DNA of 63,815 nt, filler included, from Myxococcota bacterium (lineage in GTDB: Bacteria > Myxococcota_C > UBA6777): assembly GCA_023150835.1 (NCBI GenBank). It is 4 parts of 4 records of this genome, joined end to end, with 100 filler letters (N's around TTAATTAATTAA, not from the genome) between each part and the next. Parts side by side here need not be neighbours in the genome. Positions count along the whole stretch, not along the records: positions 41,990 to 59,892 come from JAKLKB010000170.1; 3 more parts are not named here. One strand, 5' to 3'. The notes below the pieces were generated by a model that saw nothing but the letters and a program-made list of their open reading frames with translations, did not search any database and was not told the DNA's origin. Position numbers and translations under genes: made by a program. Of this stretch, positions 10,691 to 63,815 are shown in pieces. Each line of letters starts with the position of its first letter. Position 1 is the first letter of the stretch.

Positions 10691-10811
10691 AAAAAAGCCG
10701 CGTTCGCGACGCTTCAAGCGACATCTTTGTTGTTTTGAAAAACAGCGATCGTTTCGACAATACGGGGTCAAGGGGCGGCAGTCTATGGCGGGGTCTGGGG
10801 CAGCGCCCCAT
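10691..10811. repeat. mosaic repeat family B, modules C+D
   Basis: Reverse-complement similar to 13651-13775 and 63391-63512 (gccgcgttcgc..ttcaagcg..ttgaaaaac + ggggtcaagggg..ggggcagcgcccca). Confidence 0.7.
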
Positions 10812-22598: not shown

Positions 22599-22698
22599 NN
22601 NNNNNNNNNNNNNNNNNNNNNNNNNNNNNNNNNNNNNNNNNNTTAATTAATTAANNNNNNNNNNNNNNNNNNNNNNNNNNNNNNNNNNNNNNNNNNNN
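22599..22698. other. artificial contig linker
   Basis: N44-TTAATTAATTAA-N44 (stops in all frames). Confidence 0.98.
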
Positions 22699-41889: not shown

Positions 41890-41989
41890 NNNNNNNNNNN
41901 NNNNNNNNNNNNNNNNNNNNNNNNNNNNNNNNNTTAATTAATTAANNNNNNNNNNNNNNNNNNNNNNNNNNNNNNNNNNNNNNNNNNNN
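41890..41989. other. artificial contig linker
   Basis: N44-TTAATTAATTAA-N44. Confidence 0.98.
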
Positions 41990-54456: not shown

Positions 54457-54581
54457 CTCATTTCAACGGAAGCTCCTTGCTTTTGGGGGGGAGCCTCTTT
54501 CTTTTGAAGGCTTATCGTCTATTTTTGGACAGGGTTGTTTGGGTCGCGTTTTCTTTGGATGTTTGTGAGGGCGTTTTCGTG

Positions 54582-57101
54582 ATGGAGAAGCAAAAAAACA
54601 AGAGGCAAGGGTGGTATCGTGGCTTTTTCTTTAGCTTTTTCACAAGTTTGTGGCTTGCGTTCTTGGCCTGTGGTGATGTCCCTGTGTTGCAGCCCACGAA
54701 ATTCTTTTGCAACAACACCACAGCCTGCGATACGGGCTACGTATGCCAAGGCAATGTCTGCGTCTTGGCCAGTCGGATCGAAGGAAACAGTCACACAGAA
54801 GGGACCACCGAAGGGACCACAGAGATCCCGACCGAAAAGACCACAGAGATCCCGACCGAAGGGACCACAGAGATCCCGACCGAAGCGGGCGAACCAAGCG
54901 GACCCGAAGAAACGGTTCCACCCGATTCAACCGAACCCAACCCGCAAGAAGGCTCCATCGAAGAGTCCGCACCCATCGAGCCAATCGCTGATTCGACCAT
55001 CGAGCCGACCGCTGAGCCTACAGCGGAACCAACCGCCGAACCCGCCGACGAAGCGACCGCTGAGTCCGTCGACGAGCCGACCGCTGAGCCTACCGCTGAG
55101 TCCGTCGACGAGCCGACCGCTGAGCCAACCGCTGAGCCTGTATCCGACGGGAGTTCTCCAGAACCCTCCCAAGAAGTCGGACCTGACACTTGTGTTGGAC
55201 CAAGCGGCCAAAAGTGCTGTCAGAAAGCAGACGATTGCACAAGTCTTGGGCCGGGCGCGTACTGCGCACTAAACGGTTATTGCTACGCCAAAGATAAATG
55301 CACGAACTCTGATCCAAAAACTTGTCCCACGTTAGGAGATGTTTGCAAAAAAGACGGGAAGTGCGGTGATTGTGCAAACGACGGCGAGTGCGGAACAGGC
55401 GGAAAGTGCAGTCTTCAGAAACGCTGCTTTTATGATCCATGTACGAGCCCCGCTGATTGTCCGACAGGTATGGTCTGTCAGCAAAGCCGTTGTGTGGCGC
55501 TGTTGAAAAGGGATTCGTCGAATAACGTGGTGGGATGGGGAGACGGGGCCGTTGCGAAAGATTGTATGGAGTACCGCTATCCGCCCGCAGGGTACGAGGC
55601 TGCAACGCAGGACGGCGTGTACCAGATCCTCGACAAAGCAGATCAGCATTGGGTGTCCTGCAATATGACCTACGCAGGCGGCGGATGGACGTTGACCATG
55701 AAGATCCAGAAAACAGGTTCGACATTTGATTACGATTCGCCCAAATGGGAGGACGATAAGTTGGTGTCTGCAACTCCGCAATCAAACGACGCTCTGTTGG
55801 ACGGGACAGACGCGAAACTGCGCAGCTACACCAAAGTCGGAGTCAAGCAGATCATGCTCCAGATGCAGACAGAGCCCGACGTATCGGCATCTCCTGCCAC
55901 CGAGCGCAGAAGAGCCATCTTGACGCTCGATCAAAGCAAGCCTTCTTTGATGGAGGTCATGAAAGCGCCAACGCCAGCGCTATCGGTGGGTGGCGGATTG
56001 GAGCGCCAAAACTGGCGTGCGTTGATCGGTGGTTCGGAGGTGTATTCGTACCCGTGTGCGGAGGGTCTTAAAAAAACCAAAGGAGCGAATCTCAAGATCC
56101 GCATGGGTTTGATTTCTTCGGACGCGGTGGCTTGTACTGCAAACTTCTCGGTTCTGGGTGTGGGAGCAAAGTACGATGCCGCCGCACACGCCATTTTTGG
56201 GGCTGGTTTTTGGCGGGGAGGGAGTCGATCGATCGTTGAAAATGTGTATGCGTATCTGTGGGTACGGGCTTTTCCTGCTTCCACACAACCACTCGTGACG
56301 ACAAGCAACGCCTTGGCCTATGGCTCCAACCAGTTCGCCAAAAGCTGTCTTGAGTATCGGACGCCACCCGCCGTCAGCGAGATCAGCGGTGAATACTGGT
56401 TGGCGGGTCCAGCAGGTTCCTATCGGACTTATTGTGATATGACCAAACATGGCGGAGGATGGACGCTTGCGCTCAAAATCAACGGGAAAGAATCTGCCTT
56501 TGCGTTTGATAACGCGGCGGCTTGGGTCAATGGTGTTCCTTCAATCAACGTAAACCAAGGTCACTCGCCTTCGACCCAAGGCAGTTTTTCACTCGCAAGC
56601 TACACCAGCCTTGCTCCACAGCAGATCATGCTGGAACAAACGGTGTTGGACATGTCGTCTGGCACGAAAGATTCGACGCTGACGAGCCTTGTGGTGCATC
56701 TCGACAATCCGAACAGCGAACCCTTGTCAAAAGTGTTTGTTTCGCCAAATCCAGCAGCGTTGCGCTTTGCGTATTCGCTCGGTGCGATGGCGTGGATGGA
56801 GTGGTTTCCCAATCCGATGGCAAAACTCCATAAAAACTGCGTCCTCGAAGGGTTTTCAAAAGAGCAATCTTGGACAACAGATATCTTCAAAAACGCAAAA
56901 GTGCGGATCGGGGCGGTCGGCCAAGAAGAGGATTGCGCAGCCCAGCCAAAAGAGACGCTTTCATGGATCGGCCTTGGCGGAACAGGAACGGCGTGCAGTA
57001 TCAACAGTAGCTGGATTGCGGGAGCTTCTTCGGGGGATTGCGGGGTGTTTGCGAGCAAGAAGCTAGATATCGTCTCCCAGACGAATCTATATCTGCGCTG
57101 A
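54582..57101 (+). CDS. surface lipoprotein with Cys-rich repeats and two fibrinogen-like domains
   Basis: FLAC lipobox, EPTA linker, SCNMTYAGGGWTL and YCDMTKHGGGWTL. Confidence 0.88.
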   Translation: MEKQKNKRQGWYRGFFFSFFTSLWLAFLACGDVPVLQPTKFFCNNTTACDTGYVCQGNVCVLASRIEGNSHTEGTTEGTTEIPTEKTTEIPTEGTTEIPTEAGEPSGPEETVPPDSTEPNPQEGSIEESAPIEPIADSTIEPTAEPTAEPTAEPADEATAESVDEPTAEPTAESVDEPTAEPTAEPVSDGSSPEPSQEVGPDTCVGPSGQKCCQKADDCTSLGPGAYCALNGYCYAKDKCTNSDPKTCPTLGDVCKKDGKCGDCANDGECGTGGKCSLQKRCFYDPCTSPADCPTGMVCQQSRCVALLKRDSSNNVVGWGDGAVAKDCMEYRYPPAGYEAATQDGVYQILDKADQHWVSCNMTYAGGGWTLTMKIQKTGSTFDYDSPKWEDDKLVSATPQSNDALLDGTDAKLRSYTKVGVKQIMLQMQTEPDVSASPATERRRAILTLDQSKPSLMEVMKAPTPALSVGGGLERQNWRALIGGSEVYSYPCAEGLKKTKGANLKIRMGLISSDAVACTANFSVLGVGAKYDAAAHAIFGAGFWRGGSRSIVENVYAYLWVRAFPASTQPLVTTSNALAYGSNQFAKSCLEYRTPPAVSEISGEYWLAGPAGSYRTYCDMTKHGGGWTLALKINGKESAFAFDNAAAWVNGVPSINVNQGHSPSTQGSFSLASYTSLAPQQIMLEQTVLDMSSGTKDSTLTSLVVHLDNPNSEPLSKVFVSPNPAALRFAYSLGAMAWMEWFPNPMAKLHKNCVLEGFSKEQSWTTDIFKNAKVRIGAVGQEEDCAAQPKETLSWIGLGGTGTACSINSSWIAGASSGDCGVFASKKLDIVSQTNLYLR

Positions 57102-57253: not shown

Positions 57254-57338
57254 AAAGCACGGAAAGCACGGAAAGCACGGAAAGCACGGAAAGCACGGAA
57301 AGCACGGAAAGCACGGAAAGCACGGAAAGCACGGAAAG
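57254..57338. repeat. 9-bp microsatellite (aaagcacgg) x9
   Basis: Directly visible. Confidence 0.97.
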
Positions 57339-57499
57339 TATGGCGACGGGGTGATCGTCACACGATTTGTACCCTGTGGTTTGGGGGCGACGGCAAGTAC
57401 CCCTGTCAGATTACCCCCTCTGGACGGGCTTTACAGAGGATGTGTACGAGTGTTAGGCATCTGTGGCTGCCCAACAGCAGGGCGTTGGCCTTTTGAACC

Positions 57500-57716
57500 G
57501 AAAACGATAGGTTTAGGGATGAGGAGAAGCGTAAACGAATCGAAAACGATAGGTTTAGGGATGAGGAGAAGCGTAAACGAATCGAAAACGATAGGTTTAG
57601 GGATGAGGAGAAGCGTAAACGAATCGAAAACGATAGGTTTAGGGATGAGGAGAAGCGTAAACGAATCGAAGATGAGGAGAAGCGTAAACGAATCGAAAAC
57701 GATAGATTTAGGGATA
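57500..57716. repeat. 42-bp tandem repeat (4 full plus partial copies)
   Basis: gaaaacgataggtttagggatgaggagaagcgtaaacgaatc with period 42. Confidence 0.95.
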
Positions 57717-57766: not shown

Positions 57767-59704
57767 ATGGAGAAGAAAGCGTTGATGGAAGAGTTGGAGC
57801 AGTTGGGGAAGTTGTACCAATCGGGGGTGTTTTCACAGGCGGAGTTTGAAGCGCAACGAGCGGAGTTGTTGGAGCAATTGCGGGTGTTGCGCAGTGGGCA
57901 GACGCCGATGCCGTCGAAGGGTGGTGGAAGTGGACTCAGCCAAGTCCACGGTGCGGATGTATTGGCCACAGGCTTTGTGGGAGGGCAAGGGCAGGCGGGA
58001 TTTGTGGGAGGGCAAGGGCAAACGGGGCTGGGTGTGGGCCGAGTGGTGGGGGAGCGTTATCGGTTGGTGCGGATGTTGGGGCGAGGTGGGATGGGCGAGG
58101 TGTGGTTGGCCGAAGACATCCGCTTGGGTCGGGCGTTTGCGCTGAAGTTTCTGTCCGATGCGTTGGTGGGATCATCGGAAGCGTTGGGGCGGATGCACCG
58201 AGAATATGAAGTGCTGGAAAAGCTGACGCATCCGCATATTGTGCGGGTGTTCGATATGGATCAGGACAAAGACAGCGGGCGCTGGTATCTGCGGATGGAG
58301 TATGTGGAAGGCGAAGACTTGGGGAAAAAGATCGCGGTGGTGGCGCAACAAGCCAAACGACCGTTGTTTGGGATGGATGTGATGGTGGGTTGGTTAGGGC
58401 AGCTAGTGGAGGCTTTGGATTACGCCCATCAGCAGGGGATCTTGCACCGCGATATCAAGCCCGCAAATTTGATGTTGACGACCGAACCGCAGCGATTGAA
58501 AGTGATGGATTTTGGGATAGCGCGTGTGGTCAGCGGAACGCATACGACCCAACACACCGCGATGATGGGATCGATGTACTACGCCGCACCAGAGCTTTTG
58601 CGCGGTCAAGCGGCGACCCCAGCGGCGGATATCTATTCGTTTGGTGTGTTGGTGTACGAGATGTTGACGGGGGAACCGCCGATGGGACATTTCGAGAAGC
58701 CGTCTTTGGTGGTGGATGGGCTTTCGGTAGAGGTGGATCGACCGCTGCTGGGGATGTTATCGCCAAACCCGACAAAACGGGGGGGCTCGTTGCGAGAGGC
58801 GTGGTCGCCGTTGCGGGATGCGCTGCTTGGAAAATCGGCAACGGTGGTTGCGCCACCCCAGCCCGCGCCAGCATCGCCAAAGATCGAGGTGATCGCACCG
58901 CCACCGCCACCGAAGATCGCGGAACCATCGGCAGGAGAGCGGCGGGTGTTTCGGGTGGGCGGGGCGGATCTTGCGATGCGCTGGATCCCTGCGGGGCGCT
59001 TCCTCATGGGCGCAGGAGCCGATGACAAGGAGGCCAATGACTACGAAAAACCGCAGCACGAAGTGACAATCACACGGGGATTTTGGATGGGGGAGGTGCC
59101 CGTCACACAGGGCCAATACCAAGCGATCACGGGCCATAATCCATCGCATTTCAAAGCGGTGGGTTTGGATGCGCCTGTGGAGCAGGTGAATTGGCATGAA
59201 GCAGCAGCGTTTGCAAACAAGTTGTCTGCGTTGGAGGGGCTGTCGGCTTGTTTTGTGGGTAGTGGCGAACAGATGGAAGGAGTGGGAAACAAGAGCGGCC
59301 ATTACGTCGGGTGTAAGGGGTGGCGTTTACCGACGGAGGCGGAGTGGGAATATGCTTGTCGTGCGGGTGCGACAACGCCGCGTTATGGAGAGTTAGACGA
59401 GATCGCGTGGTATGGGAAGAACAGCGGCAGCACAACGCATGCTGTGGGGCAAAAACAAGCCAATGCGTGGGGGCTACACGATACGCTGGGCAATGTCTGG
59501 GAGTGGTGCTATGACTGGTTTGGTGGTTATTCGGCCCAAGCAGCTACAGACCTTGTTGGAGCAGCTACAGGCACGAACCGCGTGGTACGGGGTGGCGGTT
59601 GGCACTACCACGCTAACAGCGTGCGGGCGGCGCGGCGTTACTACGGCACGCCGACGTACCGCAACTACAACATCGGTTTCCGTGTCGTCAGGTCGAGCCC
59701 CTAA
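57767..59704 (+). CDS. SHOCT - Ser/Thr kinase - FGE-sulfatase (CLec-fold) protein
   Basis: ELEQLGKLYQSGVFSQAEFEAQRAELL; GRGGMG, HRDIKPAN, DFG, APE; RLPTEAEWEYACRAG, GNVWEWC, RGGGW, GFR. Confidence 0.95.
   Translation: MEKKALMEELEQLGKLYQSGVFSQAEFEAQRAELLEQLRVLRSGQTPMPSKGGGSGLSQVHGADVLATGFVGGQGQAGFVGGQGQTGLGVGRVVGERYRLVRMLGRGGMGEVWLAEDIRLGRAFALKFLSDALVGSSEALGRMHREYEVLEKLTHPHIVRVFDMDQDKDSGRWYLRMEYVEGEDLGKKIAVVAQQAKRPLFGMDVMVGWLGQLVEALDYAHQQGILHRDIKPANLMLTTEPQRLKVMDFGIARVVSGTHTTQHTAMMGSMYYAAPELLRGQAATPAADIYSFGVLVYEMLTGEPPMGHFEKPSLVVDGLSVEVDRPLLGMLSPNPTKRGGSLREAWSPLRDALLGKSATVVAPPQPAPASPKIEVIAPPPPPKIAEPSAGERRVFRVGGADLAMRWIPAGRFLMGAGADDKEANDYEKPQHEVTITRGFWMGEVPVTQGQYQAITGHNPSHFKAVGLDAPVEQVNWHEAAAFANKLSALEGLSACFVGSGEQMEGVGNKSGHYVGCKGWRLPTEAEWEYACRAGATTPRYGELDEIAWYGKNSGSTTHAVGQKQANAWGLHDTLGNVWEWCYDWFGGYSAQAATDLVGAATGTNRVVRGGGWHYHANSVRAARRYYGTPTYRNYNIGFRVVRSSP
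59576..59704 (+). other. putative DGR variable region
   Basis: 13 NNC codons at the canonical AAC-derived positions of the CLec C-terminus; hairpin at 59741-59754. Confidence 0.65.
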
Positions 59705-59892
59705 TTACCGTTTTCCGTTTTACCGTTTTACCGTTTGCGGCCCGATTTATCGGGGTTGAAAGAGGGGGGCGCTTCGTGAACGAATGTGTTGTCCGTCGAC
59801 AGTGCAGTCGTGTGTGCAGTATAGAGTGCGGCGGGTTCTGATGGGCGTGGCGCTTCAGGACGCAAGGCAGCGAGCTCCGCCGCGCCGCGTCG

Positions 59893-59992
59893 NNNNNNNN
59901 NNNNNNNNNNNNNNNNNNNNNNNNNNNNNNNNNNNNTTAATTAATTAANNNNNNNNNNNNNNNNNNNNNNNNNNNNNNNNNNNNNNNNNNNN
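59893..59992. other. artificial contig linker
   Basis: N44-TTAATTAATTAA-N44. Confidence 0.98.
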
Positions 59993-63131: not shown

Positions 63132-63553
63132 TGTGGGGCGCTGCCCCATACGCGCCTTGTTAAGGTGGAAACACCGGATAGTCTAGCCTGATCGCCGTTT
63201 CTTTTTCTACCCCACCCCTCAATCCCCCCGGCCAACGGGGGGAAGTTGGAACGGGCAGCGTCTGCGTCTCGTGCAAACAGCGTGCGTCATGAAAAAACAA
63301 AATCCCCGCTGCTTCCGACTTTCGCTCCCTCCCCTGTTCACGGTCTTTGGCCTCGGTGGGGGGGCCAACAAGCGCTTAACCTAACGCCTATGGGGCGCTG
63401 CCCCACACCCCGCAAGGGAGCTCCGCTCCCTTGACCCCGTGCTGGCGAAGAGAACATCGTTTTTCACACAAACAACGTTCTCGCTTGAACGGGTGCGAAC
63501 ACGGGTTTTTTGACGACGTTCTCGCTTGAACGAGTGCGAACACGGGTTTTTTG
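63132..63553 (-). repeat. longest mosaic repeat family B copy (all modules)
   Basis: Matches 15886-16141 and 53205-53413, and in reverse 10691-10811. Confidence 0.9.
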
Positions 63554-63567
63554 ATCCGACTGCGTCA

Positions 63568-63815
63568 TACGAAATCCGCCCGTTGTATGATCGTAAAGAT
63601 GTAGGGGCAGCCCCCCGTGGCTGCCCTATTACAGGGCTTCTACGCACTCTCCTTCGATCACATATCGCTCGGATATCGTATCTACGAAATCCGCCCGTTG
63701 TATGATCGTAAAGATGTAGGGGCAGCCCCCCGTGGCTGCCCTATTACAGGGCTTCTACGCACTCTCCTTCGATCACATATCGCTCGGATATCGTATCTAC
63801 GAAATCCGCCCGTTG
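63568..63815 (+). mobile_element. head-to-tail tandem family A copies (period 115)
   Basis: tacgaaatccg at 63568, 63683 and 63798. Confidence 0.9.

Follow-up and report, generated by a model that had tools for sequence, protein, structure and literature searches.

The window analysed here, a 63,815-nt stretch of DNA from an uncultured bacterium titled Myxococcota, carries on its + strand a gene (57767..59704, stop codon included) for a 645-aa protein that joins a Hanks-type Ser/Thr kinase to a C-terminal FGE-sulfatase-type domain of the C-type-lectin (CLec) fold. Comparison of this gene with its relatives indicates that its 3′ end, at 59576..59690, is very probably the variable repeat (VR) of a diversity-generating retroelement (DGR). 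In such an element a template repeat (TR) whose variable codons are AAC would be transcribed, a DGR reverse transcriptase (RT) would copy it with adenine-specific errors, and the cDNA would take the place of the gene's 3′ end. In the ligand-binding face about 19 residues would be rewritten, and the scaffold residues would stay untouched; the retrohoming mechanism itself is presumed from established DGR biology. The rewritten domain would most likely determine the binding target of the kinase, be it a ligand or a substrate or partner. The gene is one of at least seven VR-bearing copies in the lineage, and the cassette that serves the family is most likely of the HRDC-accessory type, placed directly downstream in a sister genome.

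An earlier note on this DNA, made from the sequence alone, had proposed a DGR-diversified C-terminal domain. The proposal is supported by a block saturated with changes, by the placement of these changes at codon positions 1 and 2, and by their occurrence only at residues with adenine codons in the TR of relatives.

The variable repeat and its hypervariation

The VR is delimited by the first variable AAC codon and by the end of homology to the TR (GTCGTCA), on the basis of alignments and of an excess of codons ending in C (NNC). Its 3′ end lies 14 nt before the stop. The codons quoted in the earlier note are in frame in the open reading frame (ORF) 57767-59704 (+) and are NNC-rich as claimed; the block had been started at 59570, which does not hold, since 59570-59575 reads GGC ACG and the first AAC stands at 59576. 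Between 59576 and 59683, the last 36 sense codons before GTC GTC, 18 of the 36 codons (50%) are NNC. Among the other 603 codons of the gene, the share with a final C is 15.9% and that with a final G is 49%. The choice between C and T is shifted in the same way: Asn, His, Tyr, Phe and AGY codons in the block end in C 13 times and never in T, while outside it the codons for Asn, His, Tyr, Asp, Phe and Cys and the AGY codons end in C 38 times and in T 62 times. The NNC fraction in a sliding stretch of 36 codons reaches its gene-wide maximum of 0.556 at 59594, against a mean of 0.176 (sd 0.094). All 13 Asn positions in the TR-containing ORF of the homologous protein P0146, described below, are NNC codons in the window, which agrees with the 13 NNC codons that the earlier note had placed at template AAC positions. 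The codon counts, the C/T choice and the peak at the block show that the NNC pattern is real and not a product of chance.

The protein search scored 8000 candidates, and 4661 proteins had E ≤ 0.001. Full-length identity to the window protein is 90, 85, 80 and 74% for the best matches. When 16 sequences are aligned, the last 38 residues show a conserved scaffold in which specific positions change freely. In comparisons with eight homologs, the sequence outside the block is 93, 89, 83, 83, 77, 70, 68 and 68% identical, and the 38-residue block itself, in the same order, is 63, 57, 61, 63, 66, 53, 61 and 42% identical. The closest ortholog, P0001, matches the window protein at 93.1% of positions outside the block and at 63.2% within it, where 14 of 38 residues differ. 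Block identity stays near 60% as outside identity falls, so the variable sites are saturated even for the closest pair.

At the DNA level the codon-position pattern is inverted in the block, with changes at positions 1 and 2 rather than 3. Two paralogs of the sister genome G001, introduced below, show the contrast with the rest of the gene. The window and G001:C311 differ at positions 1/2/3 by 19/18/45 over 225 codons outside the block and by 12/6/5 over the 36 codons inside. For G001:C424 the corresponding numbers are 41/27/103 over 487 codons outside and 10/9/10 over 36 codons inside.

Template repeats, cassettes and the state of the element

A protein-collection search with the translated TR region of the G001 contig C506 recovered two proteins of one 90% cluster, P0121 and P0146. 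P0121 (80 aa) is encoded on an 876,812-nt NCBI contig and has an intact, Asn-rich TR. P0146 (376 aa) is annotated 'HRDC domain-containing protein [Myxococcota bacterium]'; its HRDC domain at 88-151 (Pfam, E 2.3e-17) precedes the TR, which is read through at the end of the ORF. The 38-residue TR block of P0146 was compared ungapped with VR blocks, and its residues were classed as N/K/S/Q/T/I or other. The window VR differs from it at 12 of the 19 N/K/S/Q/T/I residues and at none of the 19 others. The same holds for P0001 (16/19 and 0/19), P0004 (12/19 and 0/19) and P0022 (15/19 and 0/19), and P0003 shows a single exception (14/19 and 1/19). The comparison covers sequences in register and of sufficient length; P0002, P0007 and P0021 (indels, out of register) and P0009 and P0013 (too short) were left out.

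A scan of species-representative genomes gave 55 loci, five of them in G001, a metagenome-assembled genome (MAG) titled Myxococcota bacterium. This MAG is incomplete and fragmented and belongs to another species than that of the window. Its GTDB phylum counts five genomes in the collection searched, of which G001 alone carries the gene family at E ≤ 1e-100. The label 'myxobacterium', which the earlier note had used, rests on NCBI titles and is not established. The paralogs that the earlier note had wished to see counted are present in G001, with at least seven VR DNA copies at 76–85% identity (contigs C311, C440, C293, C515, C424, C409 and C506).

Two G001 contigs, C314 and C34, break off right before a VR. 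C314 holds the ortholog of the window gene (residues 1-601, 87% identity) and ends at the equivalent of window position 59572, which leaves 4 nt to the first variable codon. C506 starts at the equivalent of 59716, 12 nt past the stop, and its positions 1-174 are orthologous to the post-gene spacer of the window (59716..59892, + strand; blastn 92.7% identity over 177 nt). Since these contig ends match the window flanks, the orthologous locus in G001 reads as C314, an unassembled VR and then C506. In C506 (locus L079), positions 444-546 are a non-coding TR copy with Asn codons at the variable positions, and not an FGE gene end; it is homologous to the VRs up to GTCGTCA. Against the seven VR copies, mismatches affect 115 of 217 adenines of this TR and 63 of 504 bases that are not adenine (odds ratio 7.9, p 5e-29). 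The window VR departs from it at 14 of 31 A and at 8 of 72 non-A positions, with a TR that is decayed and comes from another genome. Synteny with C506 places the predicted TR of the window's genome about 455 nt after the stop, that is, approximately 265-270 nt beyond the contig end, which gives a concrete place for it. When C506 was used as a query among 30 genomes, two matched: G001 itself and G015 (one 47-nt match, E 8.6e-4).

Several other features of the G001 loci were observed. A dispersed repeat of about 125 nt, found in the window at 10691-10810 and 63391-63511 and in L079 at 264-390, had 513 candidates in G001 at first look. It sits between the gene and the TR in C506, and it may explain assembly breaks. 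Downstream of another VR paralog, at G001:C311:1091-1381 (L081), the TR flanks of C506 (216-343 and 572-723) are contiguous and the TR is absent, so that gene and cassette flank were duplicated together and the TR was then lost or gained. G001:C409:5921-6033 (L063) is a lone 3′ gene fragment with the last ~38 codons, a diversified VR and a normal stop and flank, and in G001:C440:13573-14659 residues 21-284 are joined directly to the VR end. The C409 and C440 copies are gene remnants or assembly chimeras among paralogs.

A canonical small DGR cassette is found in G003, a genome of the same GTDB phylum as G001. Its 2.3-kb contig C901 (L146 1-2280), which contains masked N stretches, carries HRDC, an Avd-like ORF, an RT and a TR; the RT has the motifs IGNLTSQ and YMDD. 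The element GGTGGTTAYGGCTGCC follows the TR both in G003:C901 and in G001. No cognate VR for this TR was found in the G003 MAG. A metagenome scan with a TR-derived motif gave 10 loci, and all 10 have Asn-rich TR-like copies on other nucleotide scaffolds, none of this lineage; one of them, L124, is ordered HRDC, RT, TR. A scan of viral contigs with the VR scaffold pattern gave no match. The RT of G004:C83 was considered as a DGR RT and rejected, since it belongs to a group II intron. All five genomes of the phylum carry an ORF of about 720 aa with tandem RT domains: G001:C386 (L078 8020-10185), G002:C17, G003:C709, G004:C35 and G005:C7. In G001 it is a single 721-aa ORF with two RT domains of the retron St85 family (308 bits, cut-off 235).

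Sequencing runs give a further view of the family. The gene is present in part in 20 of the 24 listed runs, from 11 studies, mostly of activated sludge. Contigs of four runs (four studies) were compared at 85% likeness, and all four runs hold several variants of 59543-59700. In run X1, two 158-nt contigs over one span have 0 and 23 differing letters. Most variant contigs carry the paralog-type flank (TAG TTGCGG) at 59704-59709, and upstream differences are frequent too. Because they are confounded by paralogs, the run variants neither support nor oppose present activity.

A number of points weigh against the DGR assignment and against a cassette serving all copies. TR, RT, HRDC and Avd were searched for in the window and none was found, in line with the earlier note as regards RT and TR. 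In G001, an incomplete MAG, the PF00078 scan gave only the tandem retron-type RT, and the DGR RT query taken from the metagenome cassette L124 gave no match. When the N-terminus of the G003 RT was searched against the protein collection, none of the best 120 of 311 matches lay on relatives' contigs (those checked measure 10855, 876812, 189925, 834427, 786555, 1164144, 251042 and 77264 nt); this is a weak test, because 191 matches fall outside the best 120 and RTs may sit on other contigs. HRDC and TR of P0146 are only ~140 codons apart, which leaves no room for an RT between them, and the adenine-codon classes used with P0146 come from the G001 TR DNA and not from the DNA that encodes P0146. 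The C506 TR has lost its 5′ part to a deletion, which fused it to the HRDC start (ATGAAGG + GAAACGTGG), differs at non-A sites (TAT CGC vs CGG/CAG CGT of the VRs) and is one codon (3 nt) shorter than most VRs. VR lengths also vary among the G001 paralogs, C311 having one extra codon, so that one TR cannot serve all copies.

Two explanations would do without a retroelement. Chance or composition at the gene end as the source of the NNC pattern is extremely improbable: the small size of the block (36 codons) is all that speaks for it, whereas the NNC peak stands about 4 sd over the gene mean, the C/T choice is reversed inside the block and identical positions are variable in all relatives. It is already refuted by the codon counts, the TR comparison and the homolog identities. 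An ordinary kinase-FGE fusion, with a C-terminal loop evolving fast by diversifying selection or by gene conversion between paralogs, is also very unlikely. Kinase-FGE fusions are very common, as the number of significant protein matches illustrates, and gene conversion does occur, because paralogs share identical flanks, for example the 56 nt before the VR in G001:C311. Such a fusion would, however, leave unexplained the fixed third-position C with free positions 1 and 2, the non-coding Asn-codon copies beside an HRDC gene and the lack of any change at the 19 residues without adenine codons.

With the block taken as a DGR product, the remaining alternatives concern what became of the element. 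There is not quite an even chance that the VR is a fossil, written by an ancestral DGR that is now dead, in which case the kinase would be fixed in specificity and the paralogs would form a frozen repertoire. The failure of both RT searches in G001 is in keeping with this, as is the decay of the cassette there: HRDC is deleted at C506 and pseudogenised at a second HRDC start (C177) by an in-frame TGA, and the TR has a truncation and mutations at non-A sites. The window VR itself departs from the family consensus at non-A positions, with CGG in place of CGT at 59590 and GCT in place of GCC at 59614, and no clean within-population VR variation appears in the contigs of the four runs. On the other side, G001 is fragmentary and of a different species, P0146 retains an intact TR and an intact HRDC, and P0121 retains an intact TR. 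The contrast between the outside and inside identities of P0001 argues for rewriting after the lineages split. Taking the DGR reading as a whole, we judge that the element may still be active in the window's organism, somewhat short of an even chance, because the G001 element is a decayed remnant. The earlier note had spoken of an adaptive receptor-signalling system; that such a system runs now is not established, the cassette in the nearest available genome being a remnant in which no DGR RT was found. In a further alternative, which is quite unlikely, the lineage would have intact TR/HRDC loci and at least seven VR copies and no canonical DGR RT. Rewriting would then be done in trans by another RT, the ~721-aa tandem RT being one candidate, or the copies would serve as a germline-like repertoire of DGR-written cytosolic receptor kinases after RT loss.

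Gene organisation and surrounding DNA

The window consists of four contigs joined by N runs around TTAATTAATTAA at 22599-22698, 41890-41989 and 59893-59992. Since separate contigs are joined there, the flanks of these runs are not genome neighbours. The gene of interest occupies the end of the third contig (41990-59892, 17,903 nt), which stops 188 nt past the stop codon, close to the ~190 nt given in the earlier note; the assembly spacer at 59893..59992 follows, and then another contig. A VR search within the window returned the self-match only.

The kinase domain spans residues 98-309 (58058..58693, + strand; Pfam PF00069, Pkinase, E 3.9e-49). Its motifs are complete, with GRGGMG at 105, ALK at 125, HRD at 227, DFG at 248 and APE at 274. 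The FGE-sulfatase-type CLec domain covers residues 404-642 (58976..59692, + strand; Pfam PF03781, E 2.3e-49) and contains the VR. A 19-residue hydropathy scan of the 645-aa protein gave a maximum mean of 1.16 and predicted no membrane helix; the kinase should therefore be cytosolic, which, together with the intact motifs, fits the soluble Ser/Thr kinase described in the earlier note. A SHOCT-like helix is matched at the N-terminus, residues 8-35 (57788..57871, + strand; Pfam PF09851). Here the earlier note is right as to the match, which nevertheless lies below the Pfam cut-off (24.9 vs 27 bits, E 1.6e-5). Precomputed PF09851 annotation is present for several close homologs of the window protein. 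Oligomerisation of the kinase through SHOCT, also put forward in the earlier note, is pure conjecture.

The short repeats seen after the stop by the earlier note are TTACCGTT, arranged in tandem at 59705..59736 (+ strand; TRF, period 8, 4.1 copies) and starting right after the stop codon. The 3′ flank that bears TTACCGTT is common to the G001 paralogs C440, C515 and C409. The hairpin CCCGA-TTTA-TCGGG is located at 59741..59754 (+ strand), as the earlier note gave it, and has a stem of only 5 bp, 37 nt past the stop. Its stem is kept in the orthologous flank of G001:C506, with the loop ACAA instead, and a perfect stem of at least 5 bp is absent from four of six G001 paralog flanks. It is possible that this hairpin acts as a DGR target-site cruciform, which its presence weakly suggests and nothing else speaks for.

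Upstream of the kinase gene, an 874-aa ORF at 54477-57101 has many Cys, contains repeats rich in Thr, Glu and Pro, and matches fibrinogen-C only faintly (E 2.9e-6). Perfect tandem repeats lie directly upstream of the kinase gene, at 57254-57338 (AAAGCACGG, 9.4 copies) and at 57495-57697 (a 42-nt unit in 4.2 copies followed by a 27-nt unit in two). The start of the HRDC pseudogene in G001:C177 is preceded by a different 42-nt tandem array with the same GAATCGAAAACG beginning. Base composition is strongly biased by strand: the coding strand of the kinase gene has 38% G and 20.5% C, with 49% of codons ending in G, and a symporter gene on the + strand of the next contig (61294-62988) is C/T-rich. 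Because contig orientation is arbitrary, the bias of the two genes may reflect a large replication-strand skew. The window closes, at 63555-63815, with two tandem copies of a direct repeat of ~125 nt (…tacgaaatccgcccgttgtatgatcgtaaagatgtaggggcagcc…).

Comparison with known systems

Adenine-specific rewriting from TR to VR at the 3′ end of a target with the CLec fold is described for the DGR of the Bordetella phage BPP-1 (PMC3240598). The window gene follows the same logic of adenine-specific rewriting as the BPP-1 system (Mtd, TR, Avd, Brt). The two differ in that BPP-1 has a phage tail-fibre target and Avd, and the present family has a cellular kinase and an HRDC-type accessory. BPP-1 also has an initiation of mutagenic homing (IMH) sequence and a strong GC hairpin. 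These have no clear counterpart here, the only candidate being the 5-bp stem 37 nt past the stop.

By sequence, the best PDB match of the FGE/CLec domain is TvpA, Treponema denticola variable protein 1 (2Y3C, E 8.9e-39, domain residues 9-256). In both, the VR sits at the C-terminus of an FGE-type CLec fold. The TvpA chain, of 294 residues, aligns to the FGE/CLec domain only, and the window protein adds a kinase domain and the SHOCT-like helix. True FGEs (PDB 2Q17, 6MUJ and 1Y1E) share Pfam PF03781 and belong to the same fold family by sequence, and they match the window domain far more weakly (about 1e-18 to 1e-13). Opposite the two-Cys stretch of 2Q17, the alignment places the variable 'hyh' stretch and a 3-residue gap. 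The last 43 residues of the window protein contain no Cys. Since the active-site Cys pair of FGEs, located after their RGGS motif, is absent, this is not a catalytic FGE.

Among DGR accessories, HRDC is an established class. The passages of a DGR survey that bear on accessories and targets (PMC5758913) give HRDC cassettes for 14 of 372 DGRs, in 11 architectures, name the Treponema DGR as representative of HRDC-containing cassettes, and cover the kinase domain composition of targets and remote targets. In the multicellular purple sulfur bacterium Thiohalocapsa PB-PSB1, too, some DGR targets contain Pkinase domains (PMC10907252). Our literature search found no description of DGR-targeted kinases in Myxococcota; the supplements of large DGR surveys may contain cases.

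The closest parallel, which the earlier note had also drawn, is with cyanobacteria. In the sections of Vallota-Eastman et al. 2020 (PMC7517822) on multidomain targets, kinase-CLec proteins are the commonest such DGR targets, mostly cytosolic and with many remote paralogs. The window gene resembles those targets, as they are presented there, in having a Hanks-type kinase with a C-terminal CLec domain and a VR at the 3′ end, in being predicted to be cytosolic, and in having multiple paralogs with copies away from the cassette. It differs from them in its lineage, which consists of uncultured sludge bacteria titled Myxococcota, and in its SHOCT-like N-terminus. A cassette remnant lies directly downstream of the kinase gene in the sister genome, and an RT was not found in close members of the window lineage. 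Stages of cassette decay are visible, one relative having an intact HRDC and TR and another a remnant left by deletion, and they form a natural series for asking about the fate of a hypervariable signalling protein after loss of its mutator. The known kinase-CLec design of DGR targets would thus extend, as a multi-copy family, to an uncultured activated-sludge lineage titled Myxococcota.

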